In this document: in pieces, positions 17,461 through 51,081 of the stretch
Numbering within the stretch: the stretch's first letter is position 1
How the letters are laid out: each line of letters begins with the position of its first letter
NCBI GenBank assembly: GCA_910587065.1
Contig: CAJUMA010000003.1
Location: forward strand, 92,602 to 156,601
DNA from: an uncultured Bacilli bacterium
GTDB lineage: Bacteria > Bacillota_I > Bacilli_A > RF39 > UBA660
Direction of reading: 5' to 3'
DNA length: 64,000 nucleotides
Made by a program: the position numbers and the translations under genes
Notes under the pieces: model-generated
Told to the model about the DNA's origin: nothing
The model's input: only the letters and a program-made list of their open reading frames with translations
The model's database searches: none

Positions 17461-17555
17461 ACTTTGTTAATAAAATGTCGAATAATGTTGATAAATGGAA
17501 TAATTGTGATAAAATCAAATTATAAGACAATAATAGAAGAGGAGAGGAAGTTTTT

Positions 17556-18176
17556 ATGAAAGGAAAAACAAAGAAAAGTATTATAGTTTTAGTAGTGTTA
17601 CTAGCAATCGGATTTGCAGCTGTATCAACTACACTTTACATTAATGGTGTAATCCATTTAGGAGCAAATCAAGAGAATTTTGAAAACAATTTAATATTCA
17701 CAAGAGCATCATTAGATTACAGTGATGAAACTAAAACTGATATTTCAGATGTAACTGGTGAAGGAGCTGAAGGAGATAAATTAAGAATTGTCAACAACGG
17801 AAAAGCAATCGAATTCACAACAGAAACATTAAAAAACATTGGTGAATCAGTAACATTATCATATGATATAACTAATAATTCTCAATATGGTGCAGAATTT
17901 ACAGGAATAACTTGTGATGTTTATGATGGAACAGAAGTTGATGAAGCTAATAAGAATACAAATCCAGAGTATATTAGACTTGAAGTTCAAGATTTCAAAA
18001 ATCCTTTAGGTGAAGGTGAAACTGAAGCTACTAACAAGAAAATATCTTCAAAAGGAGGAATTGAAAATCAAACAGTTAAAGTAACAATGAAAAAATCTTA
18101 TGTTGGTACTGAAACTGAAAATACTAAAACATATACAGTTAAATGTACTATTAACGCTTCTGGTTTAAGCGAATAA
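17556..18176 (+). CDS. secreted TasA/camelysin-like protein (SipW-cognate type signal peptide candidate)
   Basis: Lys-rich n-region plus h-region (KKSIIVLVVLLAIGFAAV). The mature region starts with FTRASLDYSD..., resembling the TasA/CalY F.sGTLDL block. Immediately upstream of a SipW-type peptidase gene. Confidence 0.5.
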   Translation: MKGKTKKSIIVLVVLLAIGFAAVSTTLYINGVIHLGANQENFENNLIFTRASLDYSDETKTDISDVTGEGAEGDKLRIVNNGKAIEFTTETLKNIGESVTLSYDITNNSQYGAEFTGITCDVYDGTEVDEANKNTNPEYIRLEVQDFKNPLGEGETEATNKKISSKGGIENQTVKVTMKKSYVGTETENTKTYTVKCTINASGLSE

Positions 18177-18209
18177 TTATTTAATTAAAAATTAAGAGTG
18201 GTGAGAAAT

Positions 18210-19343
18210 ATGTTTAAATATATATTGCAAATACTTTCAATTATATTAACAATTTCTCTTTTATTCTTTAACGTTTATATTGCTAAATCAATAGATTTTA
18301 TGTTTACTTTTTTAGTACTACTAGGAATGCTTCTAGTAAGCATTTTCTTGTTTGGCTATAGAAAAGTAGATAAAAGAGATTTTAAATATAAAGTTATACT
18401 TGTAGCAGGGTTAGCATTCTTGCTACAAAGCGTACTGTACTTAATTGGAACAAAGGTAGGATATACAGCAAATTACAGTTCAATGTTCAAAACCTATGTT
18501 GAAAAGAGAATTATCTTACTAGTGTTTCTTACAGTAATAGCAAGAGAAATCATACGTTATCTAGTAGTAAATATAAATACAGGTAAGAAATGGCAAAAGT
18601 ATGTAGTTCAAATATTATTAATATTAATGTGTGTGTTAGTAGATTTGTCTATATCTCCTAAGATATATACATTTACATCATTCTCATTAGTTTATGAATT
18701 TCTTGCATTATTTTTTATACCAAGTGTTGCAAAAAATATCTTACTAAATTATTTGAGTAATATTGGTGGATATGTATTAACATTCATATACATATTAATA
18801 ATGGATTTATATATTTACTTTTTATCAATCAAACCTGATTTAAATATGTTACTAGAGGCAGTTATTTTATTAGTTTTTCCATACGTTGTTTATAACTACG
18901 TTAACAAATTAAATAATGGAAGAATTATAGTAAAAAAAAGAGAAAGAAAAAAAGAAAACAAACTAGTCACAATACTTTCGGCAATTATATTTGGAATACT
19001 TGTATGTTTAGTATCAAGAGAATTCAAATATTCGATGATAGGTATAGGTTCTGAATCGATGACAGGAACTATAAATAAAGGTGATGCAATCATCTACAGA
19101 AGATATGAGAAAAACGAAAATATCAAGGATAAAGTAATTGTGTTTAGAAGAAATAATGTTATGATAGTCCATCGTGTCATAAAGGTTTATCCGCTCGATG
19201 GAGAAGCTGTCTATCAGACAAAAGGAGATAATAATGAATCTCAAGATAACTGGTTGGTTGAAGATAAGGATATTATCGGGGTTGTAGAAAAGAGAATACC
19301 ATTAATAGCTTGGCCATCCGTTTTACTAGGAGAAATATTTTAG
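18210..19343 (+). CDS. polytopic membrane domain fused to SipW-type (archaeal/ER-type S26) signal peptidase
   Basis: C-terminal ~120 aa: catalytic Ser region IGSESMTGTINKGD, the HRV motif (MIVHRVIKV), and GDNN. N-terminal ~260 aa has about 8 predicted TM helices with no recognisable family. ATG 18210 with an upstream RBS. Confidence 0.6.
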   Translation: MFKYILQILSIILTISLLFFNVYIAKSIDFMFTFLVLLGMLLVSIFLFGYRKVDKRDFKYKVILVAGLAFLLQSVLYLIGTKVGYTANYSSMFKTYVEKRIILLVFLTVIAREIIRYLVVNINTGKKWQKYVVQILLILMCVLVDLSISPKIYTFTSFSLVYEFLALFFIPSVAKNILLNYLSNIGGYVLTFIYILIMDLYIYFLSIKPDLNMLLEAVILLVFPYVVYNYVNKLNNGRIIVKKRERKKENKLVTILSAIIFGILVCLVSREFKYSMIGIGSESMTGTINKGDAIIYRRYEKNENIKDKVIVFRRNNVMIVHRVIKVYPLDGEAVYQTKGDNNESQDNWLVEDKDIIGVVEKRIPLIAWPSVLLGEIF

Positions 19344-19361
19344 ATTGAGAGTGATGTAAAG

Positions 19362-20447
19362 ATGGAAAAAGTAGAATTACCAATATTAAGAGGGAATAAT
19401 AGTAGAAAGTCAATACCATTGACTGTTACTGTAGGATTAATTATACTAATAGTTTTATTATTGATAACAAGTTTATCTTTAACTTTTAAGAAAACTTATA
19501 AAATTAATTACAGTGATTCATCGGCCTTAGATTATAAGGTTTATCTTAAGAACAATCCATTTTTCCCAACAAAATATTTAGAGAAAGATAAACAATATAT
19601 ATCTTCAATAATTGATTATGTTGATGCAGACTTCTCATATAAATTCTCAAGTGAAGATGATATTGACATAGATTATGAGTACTATATTTTAGCAACATTA
19701 AACGTTTCTAATACTGATGGAAAAATAATCTATGATAAAAAAGAATATTTACAAAGTAGTAAAAAAGTTACAGCTGAAAATAATTCTTTAAGTGTTAATG
19801 AAAATGTCAAAATTGATTATGACAAATACAATAAGATGGCTAAAAGTTTCATAGATGAATATGGACTTACTGCTAATGCTAACTTGGTAGTAAGCTTAAT
19901 GGTTGATGTTAGAGGAAAGAATTCTCATTTCGATAAAACAATATCTGATAATGGTGTAATTACACTAACTATACCACTAACTACTAAAACAGTTGATATA
20001 TCAATGGACTATGATTTATCGAATAACAAAAATGCAACTCTTCAACAAAGAGAAGCAATTATAAATAATAAAGCATTATTTACTGCTGGAATAATATTTA
20101 TTATAATTGATATACTAGCCATAATTGCTCTTGTAATATATATAATAATTACAAGAGACGAAAAGGAAAATTATCGTGTTACTCTAAATAAGATTTTAAG
20201 AGAGAACGAAAGATATATAAGTGAAACAGTTATAACCGAAAGAGTAGAAGATATGTTGAAAACTCGTTCACTAAGAATTGAAGTGGTTAAGAGCTTTAAT
20301 GCCTTAATGGATATAAGAGATAGTTTAAATAAACCAATTTTATATCATGAAGAAAAACTTGGTGAAGAAGCTGTATTCTATATCATAAGTGAACATATAG
20401 GTTACATTTATGTTATGAGTGTAGAAGATTTTAAGAAAAAGAAATAA
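19362..20447 (+). CDS. bitopic/two-TM membrane protein of unknown function (accessory to the SipW-like gene)
   Basis: TM1 near the N-terminus (LTVTVGLIILIVLLLITSL). Extracytoplasmic Tyr/Asp/Lys-rich region of ~190 aa. TM2 (ALFTAGIIFIIIDILAIIALVIYIII). Cytoplasmic tail of ~105 aa. Confidence 0.5.
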   Translation: MEKVELPILRGNNSRKSIPLTVTVGLIILIVLLLITSLSLTFKKTYKINYSDSSALDYKVYLKNNPFFPTKYLEKDKQYISSIIDYVDADFSYKFSSEDDIDIDYEYYILATLNVSNTDGKIIYDKKEYLQSSKKVTAENNSLSVNENVKIDYDKYNKMAKSFIDEYGLTANANLVVSLMVDVRGKNSHFDKTISDNGVITLTIPLTTKTVDISMDYDLSNNKNATLQQREAIINNKALFTAGIIFIIIDILAIIALVIYIIITRDEKENYRVTLNKILRENERYISETVITERVEDMLKTRSLRIEVVKSFNALMDIRDSLNKPILYHEEKLGEEAVFYIISEHIGYIYVMSVEDFKKKK

Positions 20448-20504
20448 TTATATTTCTTTTTTTTTTGTTTTTCTTTATAATAGAGATATGGATGAAGTGA
20501 TTAT

Positions 20505-48656: not shown

Positions 48657-48741
48657 CTTTAATAAGTCATTTTTTTATGCTCAAATTTGACAAAAACAGT
48701 ATTTTTTGATAGCATATTCCCCAATTCAAGGGGGAATAAAT

Positions 48742-49209
48742 GTGAGAATAGATAGAATATTAGGGGTAATTCTATCCATCTTAGTTATATCATTCATTGT
48801 ATTAAAACAATTTAATACAGATGAAGAACCATTTGAATTAATTGGTGATAATGGCTATATGGAAAATTCAAGTATTAGCTACCAAGACAAAGTTCTTAAT
48901 AAGAATGAGTCTACTAAGGAAATCATTGAATATACAAACACCAATAATTATCCTGTAGAAATAAAAAATAATGACATAATAATTACTTGTACAGGGTCTG
49001 GTAGTACAAAAGAGGAAGATGAAGCCTTAGCTGAAAAGAATTATCATATTAATGCTAAGTTTTCAGAAACTAAAAATGGAAGTCAATATAGTTCATTAAA
49101 AGTGCCAAGAAAGTCTAAAGCTTTTATTCATGTAGTATCAGAATATTTAGGTGATTTACCAAATAATTCTGTAAGCTGTGAATATAAGCTTAATATCCAA
49201 GCTGACTAA
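48742..49209 (+). CDS. hypothetical membrane-anchored protein (GTG start)
   Basis: RBS AAGGGGGA 7 nt before GTG 48742. One TM (ILGVILSILVISFIVL). Confidence 0.4.
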   Translation: MRIDRILGVILSILVISFIVLKQFNTDEEPFELIGDNGYMENSSISYQDKVLNKNESTKEIIEYTNTNNYPVEIKNNDIIITCTGSGSTKEEDEALAEKNYHINAKFSETKNGSQYSSLKVPRKSKAFIHVVSEYLGDLPNNSVSCEYKLNIQAD

Positions 49210-49297
49210 TTTGACAAATAAACAATAATTTGGTATTATATGCCACATAAGTTTGGGGGAATACAGACTTAAAAGAATAAAAAGGGGGCATTATTTT

Positions 49298-50299
49298 ATG
49301 AGTAAAGGACGCTTACGTGATACTTTACAATACACACCATATATATTGCCGATTCTCTTAGCTGGGGGAGTAGTAATTTATTCTTTACACGGAGAAATAA
49401 AAGACACTATTAATTACAATAAAGTTCAAAAAGAACTAGAAAATATTAATGAAGAAGAATCTTTTGAATATCCGGTATTTGAAGAATTACCTGAAGAAGT
49501 AAAAGTAACACCAAAAGAAGAGTTACCCGCATATCCAACTGAAGAGGAAGAAATACCTGAGGCAATGGAAGAGTTTGCTGAAGAAGTAGAGGAACCTAAG
49601 TATCCAATATCTGATGAACTCCTAACGAGCGGTTATGAATTCAAAAAAATAAATTTTGATGAATTAACAGAAAGAAATTCTGATGTTAACGCTTGGATTG
49701 AAGTAGCTGGAACAAAGATAGATTATCCAATCATGTATGCTCCAGAAAAAGACAATATTGAGACAGGTGAATATTACTACTTACATCATGATATTGATAA
49801 TGAAAATTCACACTCAGGAACACCATTCATCTTTGGGATGAGTAATCCAGTAGATGATAACTTAGAAAATATGAGTGATGTATCAATTATCTATGGGCAT
49901 CATATGAAAGGTGGTAAAGTATTTGCTAATGTAACGAATTACATGAGTCAATCATATTATGATGAACATCCATTTGGTGTTATATACACAAAAGATGGAT
50001 ATGCTTACAAGATAACATTCTTTGCGGGGATAATAACTCCAGGAAAAAATAACAAAGATGTTTATGTAAGTGAGTTTGTTACAGAAGATTTATTCGACTC
50101 ATATATCGAAAATGCTCGTGAAAAGTCGACATTTGAAAGCGATGTTGAAGTAAATTATGGAGATAAAATAATGGTTTTATTCACTTGTGAATATACAAGA
50201 GGTGCTGATTCAAGATATGCCTTATTTGGTGTAATTGATAAACAGTACACAAATGAATTACAAATTAGTAACAACGATGAAATTCATCGTTCAAGATAA
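49298..50299 (+). CDS. srtB: class B sortase
   Basis: N-terminal TM. Motifs IDYPIMY, YYLHHD, IYGHHMKGG. Catalytic TLxTC as VLFTCEY. Conserved Arg in ...GADSRYALFGV. ATG 49298 with RBS AAAGGGGG. Confidence 0.75.
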   Translation: MSKGRLRDTLQYTPYILPILLAGGVVIYSLHGEIKDTINYNKVQKELENINEEESFEYPVFEELPEEVKVTPKEELPAYPTEEEEIPEAMEEFAEEVEEPKYPISDELLTSGYEFKKINFDELTERNSDVNAWIEVAGTKIDYPIMYAPEKDNIETGEYYYLHHDIDNENSHSGTPFIFGMSNPVDDNLENMSDVSIIYGHHMKGGKVFANVTNYMSQSYYDEHPFGVIYTKDGYAYKITFFAGIITPGKNNKDVYVSEFVTEDLFDSYIENAREKSTFESDVEVNYGDKIMVLFTCEYTRGADSRYALFGVIDKQYTNELQISNNDEIHRSR

Positions 50300-50313
50300 T
50301 GGAGGAAAAGAAA

Positions 50314-51081
50314 ATGGAAAGATTAAATAAGATTAGATTTTATGCACCAATGTATTTATTAGCAGCAGGGCTAACATTTGGTTGTCCAAGTATGACTGCT
50401 TTTGCAGAAGAAGATACTGTAACTTCAGAAACACAGGACGAGGAAAACAAATCAGAGAATAATGTTCAAACTCAATCTTCAGAATCATATTCAGATGAAG
50501 TATTATACGAAGAAACAGAAGATAATTATACTACTGATGATATTCCTGATGAATCACAAAAAAGTGATGAAGAAAAAGCTCAAGAAGAAGCTGCAAGACA
50601 AGAAGAGGAAAGAAGAGCTCAAGAAGAAGCAGATAAAGCAAGAGAAGAAGCTGCAAGAATAGAAGAAGAAAAGAAACAACAAGATGCAATAATCGGAAGC
50701 ACAGACATTGATCCAGAAGATGAAAAGTATAATACAGGAAGAAAAGAAATACCCGATACAGTTCAAACTGAAGCTGAAAGAAAAGGTATAGATCCTATTC
50801 CAGGAAAACCAGGTAAGCCAGGAAAACCAGAAGAACCAGGTAGCCCAGAGGGGACTCCAGCTCCTGAAACACAAACTACACCAACTCCAGAAAAAACAGT
50901 AGTAACCGAAATCTCTATTACACCAAAAACAGGAATGCCTGTAGGTGGTGTAGTACTAACTGGTTGTGGAATAGGTCTTGGTTTAGCTGCAACCAATGTC
51001 TTAGTTAGCAAAATTCAAATGAACAAGGTTGTTGGTTCGAAAAAGAAATTTAAAAAGAAATCTAAAAAACGTACTAGATAG
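50314..51081 (+). CDS. sortase-B substrate: secreted acidic and collagen-like (PGKPGKPGKPEEPGSP) protein with a TPKTG sorting signal
   Basis: Signal peptide, then Glu/Arg-rich coiled region, then a Gly-Pro-Lys triplet. C-terminal ITPKTG, then a hydrophobic stretch, then a KKKFKKKSKKRTR tail. The (S/P)PxTG-type motif is as recognised by C. difficile SrtB. Confidence 0.6.
   Translation: MERLNKIRFYAPMYLLAAGLTFGCPSMTAFAEEDTVTSETQDEENKSENNVQTQSSESYSDEVLYEETEDNYTTDDIPDESQKSDEEKAQEEAARQEEERRAQEEADKAREEAARIEEEKKQQDAIIGSTDIDPEDEKYNTGRKEIPDTVQTEAERKGIDPIPGKPGKPGKPEEPGSPEGTPAPETQTTPTPEKTVVTEISITPKTGMPVGGVVLTGCGIGLGLAATNVLVSKIQMNKVVGSKKKFKKKSKKRTR

Follow-up and report, generated by a model that had tools for sequence, protein, structure and literature searches.

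TasA-type fibres are major biofilm scaffolds. In B. subtilis, the tapA-sipW-tasA locus encodes a dedicated ER/archaeal-type signal peptidase beside the secreted fibre subunit, whose new N-terminus after cleavage is the donor strand. Pyrodictium AbpX is a TasA-superfamily protein that polymerises by donor-strand complementation, as resolved by cryo-EM. AbpX loci with a ten-helix type I signal peptidase (SPase I) and a DUF5305 protein were mentioned in one sentence in January 2026 (bioRxiv 10.64898/2026.01.04.697558), and a locus of this type is thus already known. The haloarchaeal Tat-fimbriae locus (tafA-G), which encodes a donor-strand pilus, also combines a dedicated SPase I (TafD), needed for processing of the TafA subunit, with a DUF5305 protein (TafG). 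In both Tafi and AbpX loci, DUF5305 proteins have been described as accessories of SPase I, and they have been likened to accessory subunits of the eukaryotic signal peptidase complex (bioRxiv 10.64898/2026.01.04.697558). In S. aureus, the degenerate CAAX-protease homologue SpbR forms a 1:1 complex with the signal peptidase SpsB via the SpsB helix, contacts this helix and the extracellular domain, and controls cleavage, which it inhibits in vivo and in vitro. SpdC-SagB is a similar pair, in which a degenerate CAAX-protease-like protein binds a single-pass enzyme.

The locus described here lies in a 64,000-nucleotide stretch of DNA (hereafter the window) from an uncultured, Erysipelotrichales-like gut Bacilli bacterium, and consists of three genes, p1, p2 and p3. 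The cassette is probably of the AbpX type, within the donor-strand fibres of the TasA superfamily. Like AbpX loci, it encodes a small acidic beta-sandwich subunit, a TIGR02228-type peptidase of ~380 aa with about ten helices, and a DUF5305 protein; the window p1 is very divergent from P. abyssi AbpX, and the host belongs to a mesophilic gut Bacilli lineage. What is new is the predicted CPBP fold, the parallel to S. aureus SpbR-SpsB, and subunit paralogues bearing GH3 or CBM26. The preprint cited above does not mention a CPBP/CAAX fold for the AbpX-locus peptidase.

Layout and conservation of the cassette

The features of the locus are as follows (positions in the window, all on the + strand):

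17488..17515, +, promoter-like site (TTGATA, 16 nt, TG-TAAAAT) 5' of p1
17556-18176, +, p1 ORF, 206 aa; secreted acidic beta-sandwich and probable fibre subunit of the AbpX-like (TasA-superfamily) kind
17556..17618, +, p1 signal peptide, aa 1-21, from hydropathy; c-region G19-F20-A21, then A22
17619..17660, +, p1 residues 22-35 (AVSTTLYINGVIHL), segment with alternating hydrophobics, putative N-terminal donor strand
18198-19343, +, p2 ORF from the GTG start, 381 aa
18210..19343, +, p2 from the preferred ATG start, 377-aa fusion protein (alternative GTG upstream at 18198)
18210..18917, +, p2 N-terminal domain, aa 1-236, eight TM helices, predicted CPBP/Rce1-like fold
18918..19016, +, p2 linker, basic and cytoplasmic (aa 237-250), followed by the anchor helix (aa 251-269), from hydropathy and AF2
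19017..19343, +, p2 catalytic domain, ER/archaeal-type signal peptidase I (S26B)
19362-20447, +, p3 ORF, 361 aa, DUF5305 protein
20433..20472, +, A/U-only hairpin of 14 bp followed by a U-run, 3' of p3

The three genes are real ORFs and form one unit with short intergenic gaps. A consensus scan found a promoter-like site 5' of p1 with 10/12 consensus matches and an extended -10 TG, which is weak evidence because such sites are common in AT-rich DNA (57 found vs 47 expected). At the other end, the A/U hairpin (RNA fold -9.8 kcal/mol, z -3.0 vs shuffles) and its U-run are likely the intrinsic terminator closing the three-gene unit; a G+C-based terminator scan did not pick up this hairpin. A further hairpin at the end of p1, considered as an attenuator, folded no better than shuffles (z -0.08) and was discarded.

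Among 59 species-level genomes from gut Bacilli and Clostridia, 54 kept the gene order p1-p2-p3, and the DUF5305 gene lay directly 3' of the fusion in as many loci. Four of the five exceptions were truncated by contig ends, and the remaining one (L037) has a p1-like gene 3' of p3. Genes flanking the cassette were common to close relatives only, and the locus contains no anchor, tip or regulator genes, with tip and anchor genes missing from the whole window. Another candidate p1-like gene, at 48706-49209 of the window, was not accepted, as its HMM match (E 2.6e-4) was accompanied by an hhalign E of only 0.06.

The first-pass annotation had described the locus as a dedicated secretion and processing module for a fibre or matrix protein that differs from tapA-sipW-tasA. 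The conserved cassette, the ER/archaeal-type peptidase and the DUF5305 third gene bear this out: SipW is about 190 aa and has no eight-helix domain, and the window cassette has DUF5305 instead of TapA. Taf differs in other respects: TafD is a four-helix protein with a second outside domain in place of a CPBP-like one, the Taf subunits use Tat signals, and the Taf pilins fall in a different branch of the superfamily.

The fused signal peptidase

The start of p2 is most likely ATG 18210, since a GGTGAG Shine-Dalgarno sequence lies 4 nt upstream and all homologues begin M-[FL]-K-[YF]. Hydropathy and AF2 agree on eight helices in residues 2-236, a linker, one anchor helix and the catalytic domain. 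The linker had a pLDDT <50 at residues 242-246, and packing of the anchor helix on the N-terminal domain was modelled with low confidence (pLDDT 58-67). The annotated fusion of a peptidase to a membrane domain of about eight helices was correct, with the domain being about 240-250 rather than ~260 aa long.

That the fusion is an artefact, produced by a frameshift or by mis-assembly of two genes, is almost certainly wrong. A few metagenome contigs (L068-L071) carry both parts as separate ORFs, but these are cases of low-coverage contigs, a scaffold gap or a poly-A frameshift, and they were not accepted as genuine split-gene versions. A search for the same architecture in other genomes recovered >115 full-length homologues (44-96% identity) from many samples; the ORF of ~377 aa was unbroken in >115 clusters, in 59 species genomes and in the complete genome of Pyrodictium abyssi. 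With the N-terminal domain as query, at least 672 clusters at 50% identity were obtained, nearly all of about 375 aa. Of the unfused versions, only the stand-alone copies of the domain in L065-L067 look real.

The ER/archaeal-type S26 signatures reported for the peptidase were confirmed: G-S281-E-S283-M, V-H321-R-V, K-G-D340-N-N and D346 were invariant in 44 homologues, and S283, H321, D340 and D346 also in a set of 119 sequences. They align to SGSM / VHRV / KGDNNE of human SEC11C, so that the peptidase is of the Ser-His type, not Ser-Lys, with additional conserved Asp residues. TIGR02228 matched residues 251-373 at 66.5 bits (cutoff 51.85). Pfam Peptidase_S26 fell just below its cutoff for the window protein (21.3, cutoff 22.9) and matched 44/44 relatives (best E 2.9e-10). 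Identity with SipW proper was rejected, as the equivalog model NF046067 gave 45.6 bits against a cutoff of 190, and p2 has 377 aa and eight extra helices. By sequence, the catalytic domain is closest to SEC11A/C, the catalytic subunit of a complex that likewise works with extra membrane-spanning parts; the accessory fold there (SPC22/23, SPC25, SPC12) is unrelated, and here a CPBP-like domain in cis and DUF5305 are present instead.

The P. abyssi SPase I adjoining AbpX (WP_338249487.1, 380 aa) has the same layout as p2, and the p2 fusion profile aligned with it end to end. For the N-terminal domains alone, homology to the single P. abyssi sequence was not significant, whereas a profile alignment with a nine-sequence profile was weakly significant (P 1.6e-4; shuffles 0.27-0.92). 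In loci retrieved with the P. abyssi peptidase, upstream ORFs matched both the AbpX and p1 HMMs, and DUF5305 was present in three.

The N-terminal domain had been assigned to no known family, which holds for sequence libraries and not for the fold. One AF2 model gave a CPBP/Rce1-like fold, a relationship that is one of fold similarity only, and the closest structural match was SpdC, which is inactive. PF02517 matched none of the 44 fused proteins and neither of the stand-alone members at E up to 1, no link to CPBP was found in Pfam, NCBIfam or a profile search of PDB sequences, and no sequence similarity of the domain to SpbR or SpdC was detected. A regex search of the window for a canonical CPBP gene as a bridge was also negative. 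Comparison with exosortase/archaeosortase and CPBP families had been proposed at first pass; CPBP was recovered by fold and not by sequence, and exosortase/archaeosortase was excluded, there being no conserved Cys or His for a Cys-Arg-His catalytic set. Weak Pfam matches to AgrB and CbtA (E about 0.008; AgrB in 10/44, best E 2e-4) were attributed to composition, since they score under the cutoff and extend over the linker and anchor helix.

Helix 4 carries E113-x-x-R116, conserved at 100% and 99% in 119 diverse sequences, in which N176, Y181 and Y194 are also conserved. In the Rce1 structure, motif 1 likewise lies on the fourth helix, and E113-x-x-R116 may correspond to it. It is improbable that the domain is an active, glutamate-dependent intramembrane protease that descends from CPBP enzymes and has rebuilt its active site, making p2 a two-protease machine that degrades the cleaved signal peptide or makes a second cut in p1. 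The fold would allow it, the conservation of E113, R116, N176, Y181 and Y194 goes beyond apparent scaffold need, and the CPBP member MroQ is active and processes a peptide precursor in S. aureus. However, compared with CPBP motif 1 (EExxxR), E113-x-x-R116 has a single Glu and a shorter spacing, and the domain has no histidine and therefore lacks motifs 2 (FxxxH) and 3 (HxxxD/N), both needed for activity in CAAX proteases (SpbR-SpsB paper); no column exceeded 20% His across the 119 sequences. The top structural match is, moreover, the inactive SpdC, and mutation of the corresponding residues in SpbR had no effect.

A substrate-docking platform, as suggested in the first-pass annotation, is a plausible role for the domain as modelled. 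SpbR-SpsB offers the nearest parallel, a non-catalytic polytopic protein of CPBP fold coupled to a type I signal peptidase, although SpbR and SpsB are separate proteins, SpsB is a bacterial Ser-Lys enzyme and p2 of the Ser-His type, and SpbR inhibits cleavage of many substrates. From this parallel, the domain could instead inhibit or gate the peptidase from within the same protein, in the way SpbR acts on SpsB, with the block lifted by a signal that is possibly relayed by the cytoplasmic tail of the DUF5305 protein. We consider this unlikely as an alternative to docking. SpbR does bind SpsB and inhibit cleavage, and the 99-aa DUF5305 tail could sense something; against this, one stand-alone copy of the domain (L067) lies directly 3' of a p1-like gene with no adjoining peptidase, which links the domain to the substrate and not to the enzyme only, and the extreme conservation of the p1 c-region suggests specific recognition. 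Gate and docking roles are mutually compatible.

The secreted subunit and its relationship to AbpX

Cleavage of p1 was predicted after A21. The c-region is the best-conserved part of the family, with a column conservation of 0.83 at residues 19-22 vs 0.41 in the core, and the predicted site is in the same register as that of AbpX (T-Y-A, then Q-W-S-E-T-L). Residues 22-35 would act as the donor strand: V23, T26, L27, I29, N30 and G31 are invariant in the family, the segment aligns to AbpX W2-I12, and it had a low pLDDT (50-56) in the monomer AF2 model, as likewise reported for the AbpX donor strand. The model as a whole (pLDDT 82) contained a beta-sandwich core of residues 46-203. The motif F-T-R-A-S-L-D-Y, previously read as the opening of the mature protein, corresponds to residues 48-55, the first core beta-strand of the model. 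With the predicted cleavage site ~27 residues before it, the motif is not the mature N-terminus; within it, the family conserves F48 and A51 only. Processing like a type IV pilin was ruled out, as the sequence does not contain a G-then-F...E5 leader motif.

The proposed likeness of p1 to TasA and camelysin was not supported directly, and a link to the TasA superfamily was obtained through AbpX profiles. Direct homology was rejected: there was no match in Pfam or NCBIfam, none to PDB sequences with a profile, and none between Peptidase_M73 (PF12389) and p1 at E up to 1. The hhalign comparison of p1 with TasA, using an approximate TasA query, was not significant (E 0.06-0.1). An HMM of 56 p1-family sequences matched P. 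abyssi AbpX over HMM positions 13-152 (23.8 bits, E 2.9e-7 in 156 ORFs), and a further sequence (L072) in the core only. With hhalign, the p1 family matched AbpX with Prob 81% and E 1.2e-5, the Clostridia p1 clade matched AbpX with Prob 95% and E 3.5e-8, and the Bacilli and Clostridia p1 clades matched each other with E 8e-28, while shuffled controls gave 0.4-0.9. Membership of p1 in the AbpX-like clade is transitive, because the window's own clade alone was not significant against AbpX (hhalign E 0.17). Mature p1 (pI 4.5, D+E 16%, Cys120/Cys197) shows the acidity described for the AbpX-like clade, with its pI near 4 and Asp+Glu close to 15%.

When p1 is aligned to AbpX, V23 and T25 occupy the positions of the Trp clamp and the Ca-binding Glu. 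Of 24 Clostridia-clade sequences, 12 have D at the acidic position, and position 2 is mostly V, L or F in this clade. Calcium coordination is frequent in AbpX-type proteins, not universal (bioRxiv 10.64898/2026.01.04.697558).

The missing aromatic and acidic donor residues in the window clade would be expected if p1 were not a polymer and the cassette were a dedicated sorting and processing route for a family of monomeric proteins, secreted or at the surface, the N-terminal module serving as tag and carrier. The p1 model is also closer to generic Ig-like or PapD-like sandwiches than to TasA, and paralogues in related genomes have GH3 or CBM26 attached after a complete p1 module. Such a route is nonetheless doubtful, given the profile homology to AbpX, a donor-strand polymer proven by cryo-EM, and an N-terminal segment that combines conservation and amphipathic character with disorder in the monomer. 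Some loci, furthermore, hold several small p1 paralogues, which resemble sets of major and minor subunits.

Proposed mechanism and significance

The third protein matched PF17231 (DUF5305) with 63 bits (cutoff 29). Its two TM helices (20-38 and 244-262) flank a large outside domain, as annotated at first pass, with a cytoplasmic tail of 99 rather than ~105 aa. The outside domain has 205 aa and is composed of K 11%, D 10%, S 10%, N 9% and Y 8%; the tail is alpha/beta. An 812-aa protein (P0319) considered as a triple fusion was a chimera with a phosphoesterase, not DUF5305. We regard p3 as a putative SPase accessory subunit.

We infer that p1 polymerises, and that the p2 N-terminal domain and p3 serve this process, in the following way. 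The p1 precursor would be exported by Sec and held in the membrane through its signal peptide. The dedicated peptidase p2 would cut after G-F-A21 and leave A22-L35, disordered in the monomer, as the new N-terminus; once freed, this segment would enter the open sandwich of the next subunit as a beta-strand, resulting in an acidic extracellular fibre. Paralogues with a p1 N-terminal module and GH3 or CBM26 may, in related genomes, join the fibre as tip or minor subunits. In p2, two modules would be joined that in S. aureus are separate interacting proteins (SpbR/SpdC-like and type I signal peptidase). The eight-helix domain would be a helix-binding platform, not a protease, that holds the anchor helix, the p1 signal peptide or both, limits p2 to cognate substrates and times donor-strand release; p3 would be the third subunit of a small signal-peptidase complex. 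SpbR inhibits its peptidase, which is not an obvious match for a permanently fused partner. A more specific version, in which the eight-helix domain is a CAAX-protease-derived pseudo-enzyme that reads the unusually conserved substrate signal peptide within the membrane and hands the scissile bond to the fused peptidase, coupling cleavage to polymerisation at a single site, is possible but less likely than not.

The locus bears on how TasA-type subunits are kept unpolymerised until export, and on their private signal peptidases. The peptidase family is large, present in gut Bacilli and Clostridia and with relatives adjoining AbpX in a hyperthermophilic archaeon, and the CAAX-protease-fold module on its catalytic domain is described in no curated library. 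By analogy, the fusion and the SpbR-SpsB complex together suggest that CPBP pseudo-proteases may be general partners of signal peptidases, and the three-gene system is compact enough to test this partnership. If the pseudo-enzyme does read the signal peptide, the fusion would be the covalent counterpart of the SpbR-SpsB pair, and the partnership of CPBP proteins and signal peptidases would be ancient, general and common to bacteria and archaea. Gut Bacilli would, in that case, load GH3 glycosidases and CBM26 starch-binding modules, by way of their p1-like modules, onto donor-strand fibres that thereby carry enzymes. That related subunits bear GH3 or CBM26 hints at a use of such fibres by uncultured gut Firmicutes in capturing or degrading polysaccharides.

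The three-gene unit and its fused signal peptidase

The three co-directional ORFs proposed in the first-pass annotation were all recovered in the window, which has a G+C content of ~28% and is matched by the uncultured Bacilli/Erysipelotrichales-type MAG GCA_948736825.1.

Features of the cassette in the window (the three genes are co-directional)
17488-17515, promoter-like site
17556-18176, p1, secreted protein and putative AbpX-like fibre subunit, 206 aa
18198/18210-19343, p2, eight-helix N-terminal domain fused to an ER/archaeal-type signal peptidase I (SPase I), 377 aa from ATG 18210
19362-20447, p3, DUF5305 protein and putative SPase accessory, 361 aa
20433-20472, A/U-only hairpin of 14 bp and then a U-run, after p3 (-9.8 kcal/mol, z -3.0)

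Intergenic gaps are 33 nt (p1-p2) and 18 nt (p2-p3). The most likely start codon of p2 is ATG 18210, which has a GGTGAG ribosome-binding site ahead of it and agrees with the start in all homologues. The terminator-like hairpin 3' of p3 was missed by a G+C-based terminator scan because its stem consists of A-U pairs only, and further terminators of this AT-rich genome may escape such a scan likewise. Hydropathy and an AF2 model (pLDDT 82.5) place the eight helices of p2 ahead of a basic linker, a single anchor helix and the catalytic domain. DUF5305 was assigned to p3 with 63 bits (cutoff 29), and its two helices flank a 205-aa outside domain, followed by a cytoplasmic tail of 99 aa.

That p2 is a genuine fusion and not the product of a frameshift was borne out by >115 full-length homologues (375-384 aa, 44-96% identity) from many samples, and the fusion is present in 59 species-level genomes of gut Bacilli and Clostridia. 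Searched with a profile built on the N-terminal domain by itself, a set of 1.84 billion representatives yielded 672 clusters at 50% identity. Of the 672, 349 have E 1e-10 or lower, and almost all of the 150 best are 365-392 aa long and are therefore fused. Apparent split versions of p2 were put down to errors at low coverage, to a gap in a scaffold or to a frameshift at poly-A. In two loci (L070:2738-3875 and L071:2689-3826) the domain and the peptidase lie in overlapping ORFs of different frames, with a junction around an A7 run that is identical in two samples, caused by a sequencing error in the homopolymer or by slipped-strand variation.

Real stand-alone copies of the eight-helix domain, 235-aa homologues without a fused peptidase, number two. 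One lies directly downstream of a p1-like gene with the motif GFAAFSTTL (L067:1295-2660), with an HtrA-like protease upstream, an rsmG-like gene downstream and no peptidase adjoining. The other was seen in two independent samples (L065:1982-2689, L066:1693-2400), with Coat_F and Cu_amine_oxidN1 as neighbouring genes.

The order p1, p2, p3 was conserved in 54/59 species loci; four of the exceptions are truncated by contig ends and the fifth (L037) has a p1-like gene downstream of p3. The CmpB-like, PopT-like, Mbeg1-like and GNAT genes flanking the window cassette are common to close relatives only. Many related loci have additional p1 paralogues, and the window locus, with its single subunit gene, is the minimal form of the cassette. 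Clostridia-clade p3 homologues (L039-L062) are much longer, at 490-836 aa versus 361 aa in the window, and therefore carry extra domains (for example the 804-aa protein at L039:7111-9525).

Long paralogues in related loci start with a full p1-like module (HMM positions about 6-152) and continue into a GH3 glycoside hydrolase domain, in proteins of 1066-1299 aa, or a CBM26 starch-binding module, in a protein of 663 aa. They were located at L025:8550-12449, L023:1024-4224 and L012:8335-10326, and also in L026, L028, L029 and L030; these proteins are candidates for an enzyme-bearing tip or minor subunit.

The eight-helix domain of p2

Across 119 diverse members, E113 and R116 of helix 4 were among the invariant positions, and G80, G84, F/Y85, N176, Y181, G187, Y194, P206, P209 and P224 were further conserved. 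One rival reading holds that this domain is itself an active protease. PMC12260438 names EExxxR, FxxxH and HxxxD/N as the motifs that active CAAX proteases require, and no alignment column of the N-terminal domain had >20% His in the same 119 members; the domain is therefore a CPBP (CAAX-protease, Rce1-like) fold without the CPBP catalytic equipment, as are SpdC, LnsB and SpbR. The degenerate CAAX-protease homologue SpbR binds the S. aureus signal peptidase SpsB in a 1:1 complex and exerts control over cleavage; in that complex the SpsB helix packs on helices 5 and 7 of SpbR (PMC12260438). By analogy, p2 can be read as the covalent counterpart of an SpbR-SpsB-type pair. A second rival would make the domain an inhibitor; the role favoured here is that of a helix-binding platform, which would receive the signal peptide, the anchor helix or both.

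Relationship to the AbpX system

AbpX of Pyrodictium abyssi belongs to the TasA superfamily and polymerises by calcium-assisted donor-strand complementation, and bacterial and archaeal AbpX loci encode their own dedicated SPase I, which spans the membrane with ten helices, together with an accessory protein of the DUF5305 family (10.64898/2026.01.04.697558, January 2026 preprint). The AbpX sequence was taken from the supplement of that preprint. The p2 family profile aligned with the 380-aa peptidase encoded beside abpX over 329 columns (Prob 98.3%, E 1.4e-14). The N-terminal domain alone gave no significant match to the single P. abyssi peptidase sequence, and its HMM scored 12.5 bits on it. 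Scanning metagenomes with this peptidase yielded 13 loci; their fusions are 390-430 aa long and are covered by the p2 HMM from one end to the other. The N-terminal-domain-only HMM scored 58-103 bits on four of these and 18-27 bits on the P. abyssi-like group. When the N-terminal domains were compared profile to profile, P was 1.6e-4 over 143 columns (shuffled controls 0.27-0.92), and the GxxxGF, ExxR and PxxP motifs coincided. The ORF just upstream of the recovered fusions drew hits from the AbpX HMM (1e-9 to 1e-17) as well as the p1-family HMM (1e-6 to 4e-12), and DUF5305 follows the fusion in three of the loci.

On the subunit side, positions 13-152 of the p1-family HMM matched authentic AbpX (23.8 bits; E 2.9e-7 in a set of 156 ORFs). 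This match is not due to the signal peptide alone, since L072 was matched in the core only. Using hhalign, the window's Bacilli clade of p1 was linked to the Clostridia clade (E 8e-28), and the Clostridia clade (Prob 95%, E 3.5e-8) and both clades pooled (E 1.2e-5) to AbpX, with shuffled controls at 0.4-0.9; the window's own clade alone was not significant against AbpX (E 0.17), and p1 had no significant match to TasA. Predicted cleavage sites coincide in the aligned register (p1 F-A21/A22-V-S-T-T-L, AbpX Y-A/Q-W-S-E-T-L). The Trp clamp and calcium-binding Glu of AbpX correspond to V and T in the window's p1 clade. The acidic position of the AbpX donor segment is Asp in half of the Clostridia clade. 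A Clostridia-clade p1-like protein (L050:1588-2169) matched TIGR04088, a SipW-dependent-type signal peptide, with 14.6 bits (cutoff 19), which hints that the conserved leader may be related to this class.

Elsewhere in the window, a 167-aa membrane-anchored beta-rich ORF (48706-49209) was considered as a p1 relative and set aside (HMM E 2.6e-4, hhalign E 0.06); by sequence comparison it is probably unrelated. In the region 49253-51081, an ORF resembling a sortase carries an LFTCEY motif and scores 18.9 bits with Pfam Sortase, short of the cutoff. After it comes a 260-aa acidic Pro-rich protein whose C-terminus consists of TPKTG, a hydrophobic segment and a basic tail; the two probably form a separate pair of sortase and substrate.

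Proposed assembly and novelty

The best-supported account of the cassette combines Sec export, cleavage by p2 and donor-strand fibre assembly. Sec would export p1, p2 would cut it specifically after A21, and the released amphipathic N-terminus would complete the sandwich of the adjoining subunit, repeats of which would build an acidic fibre; under a rival reading, p1 would be a monomeric cargo. DUF5305 is paired in the literature with the Tafi peptidase TafD and is sometimes fused to SPase I, and p3 may act as an additional subunit.

The architecture is already present in the preprint 10.64898/2026.01.04.697558, in one sentence only, so the window locus is a divergent new example of the AbpX-type kind described there. 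CPBP, Rce1 and CAAX are not mentioned in that preprint. New here are the CPBP fold assignment of the p2 N-terminal domain, its invariant E-x-x-R and absence of His, the family size of the fusion, the stand-alone domain copies, the SpbR-SpsB parallel and the enzyme-bearing p1 paralogues.
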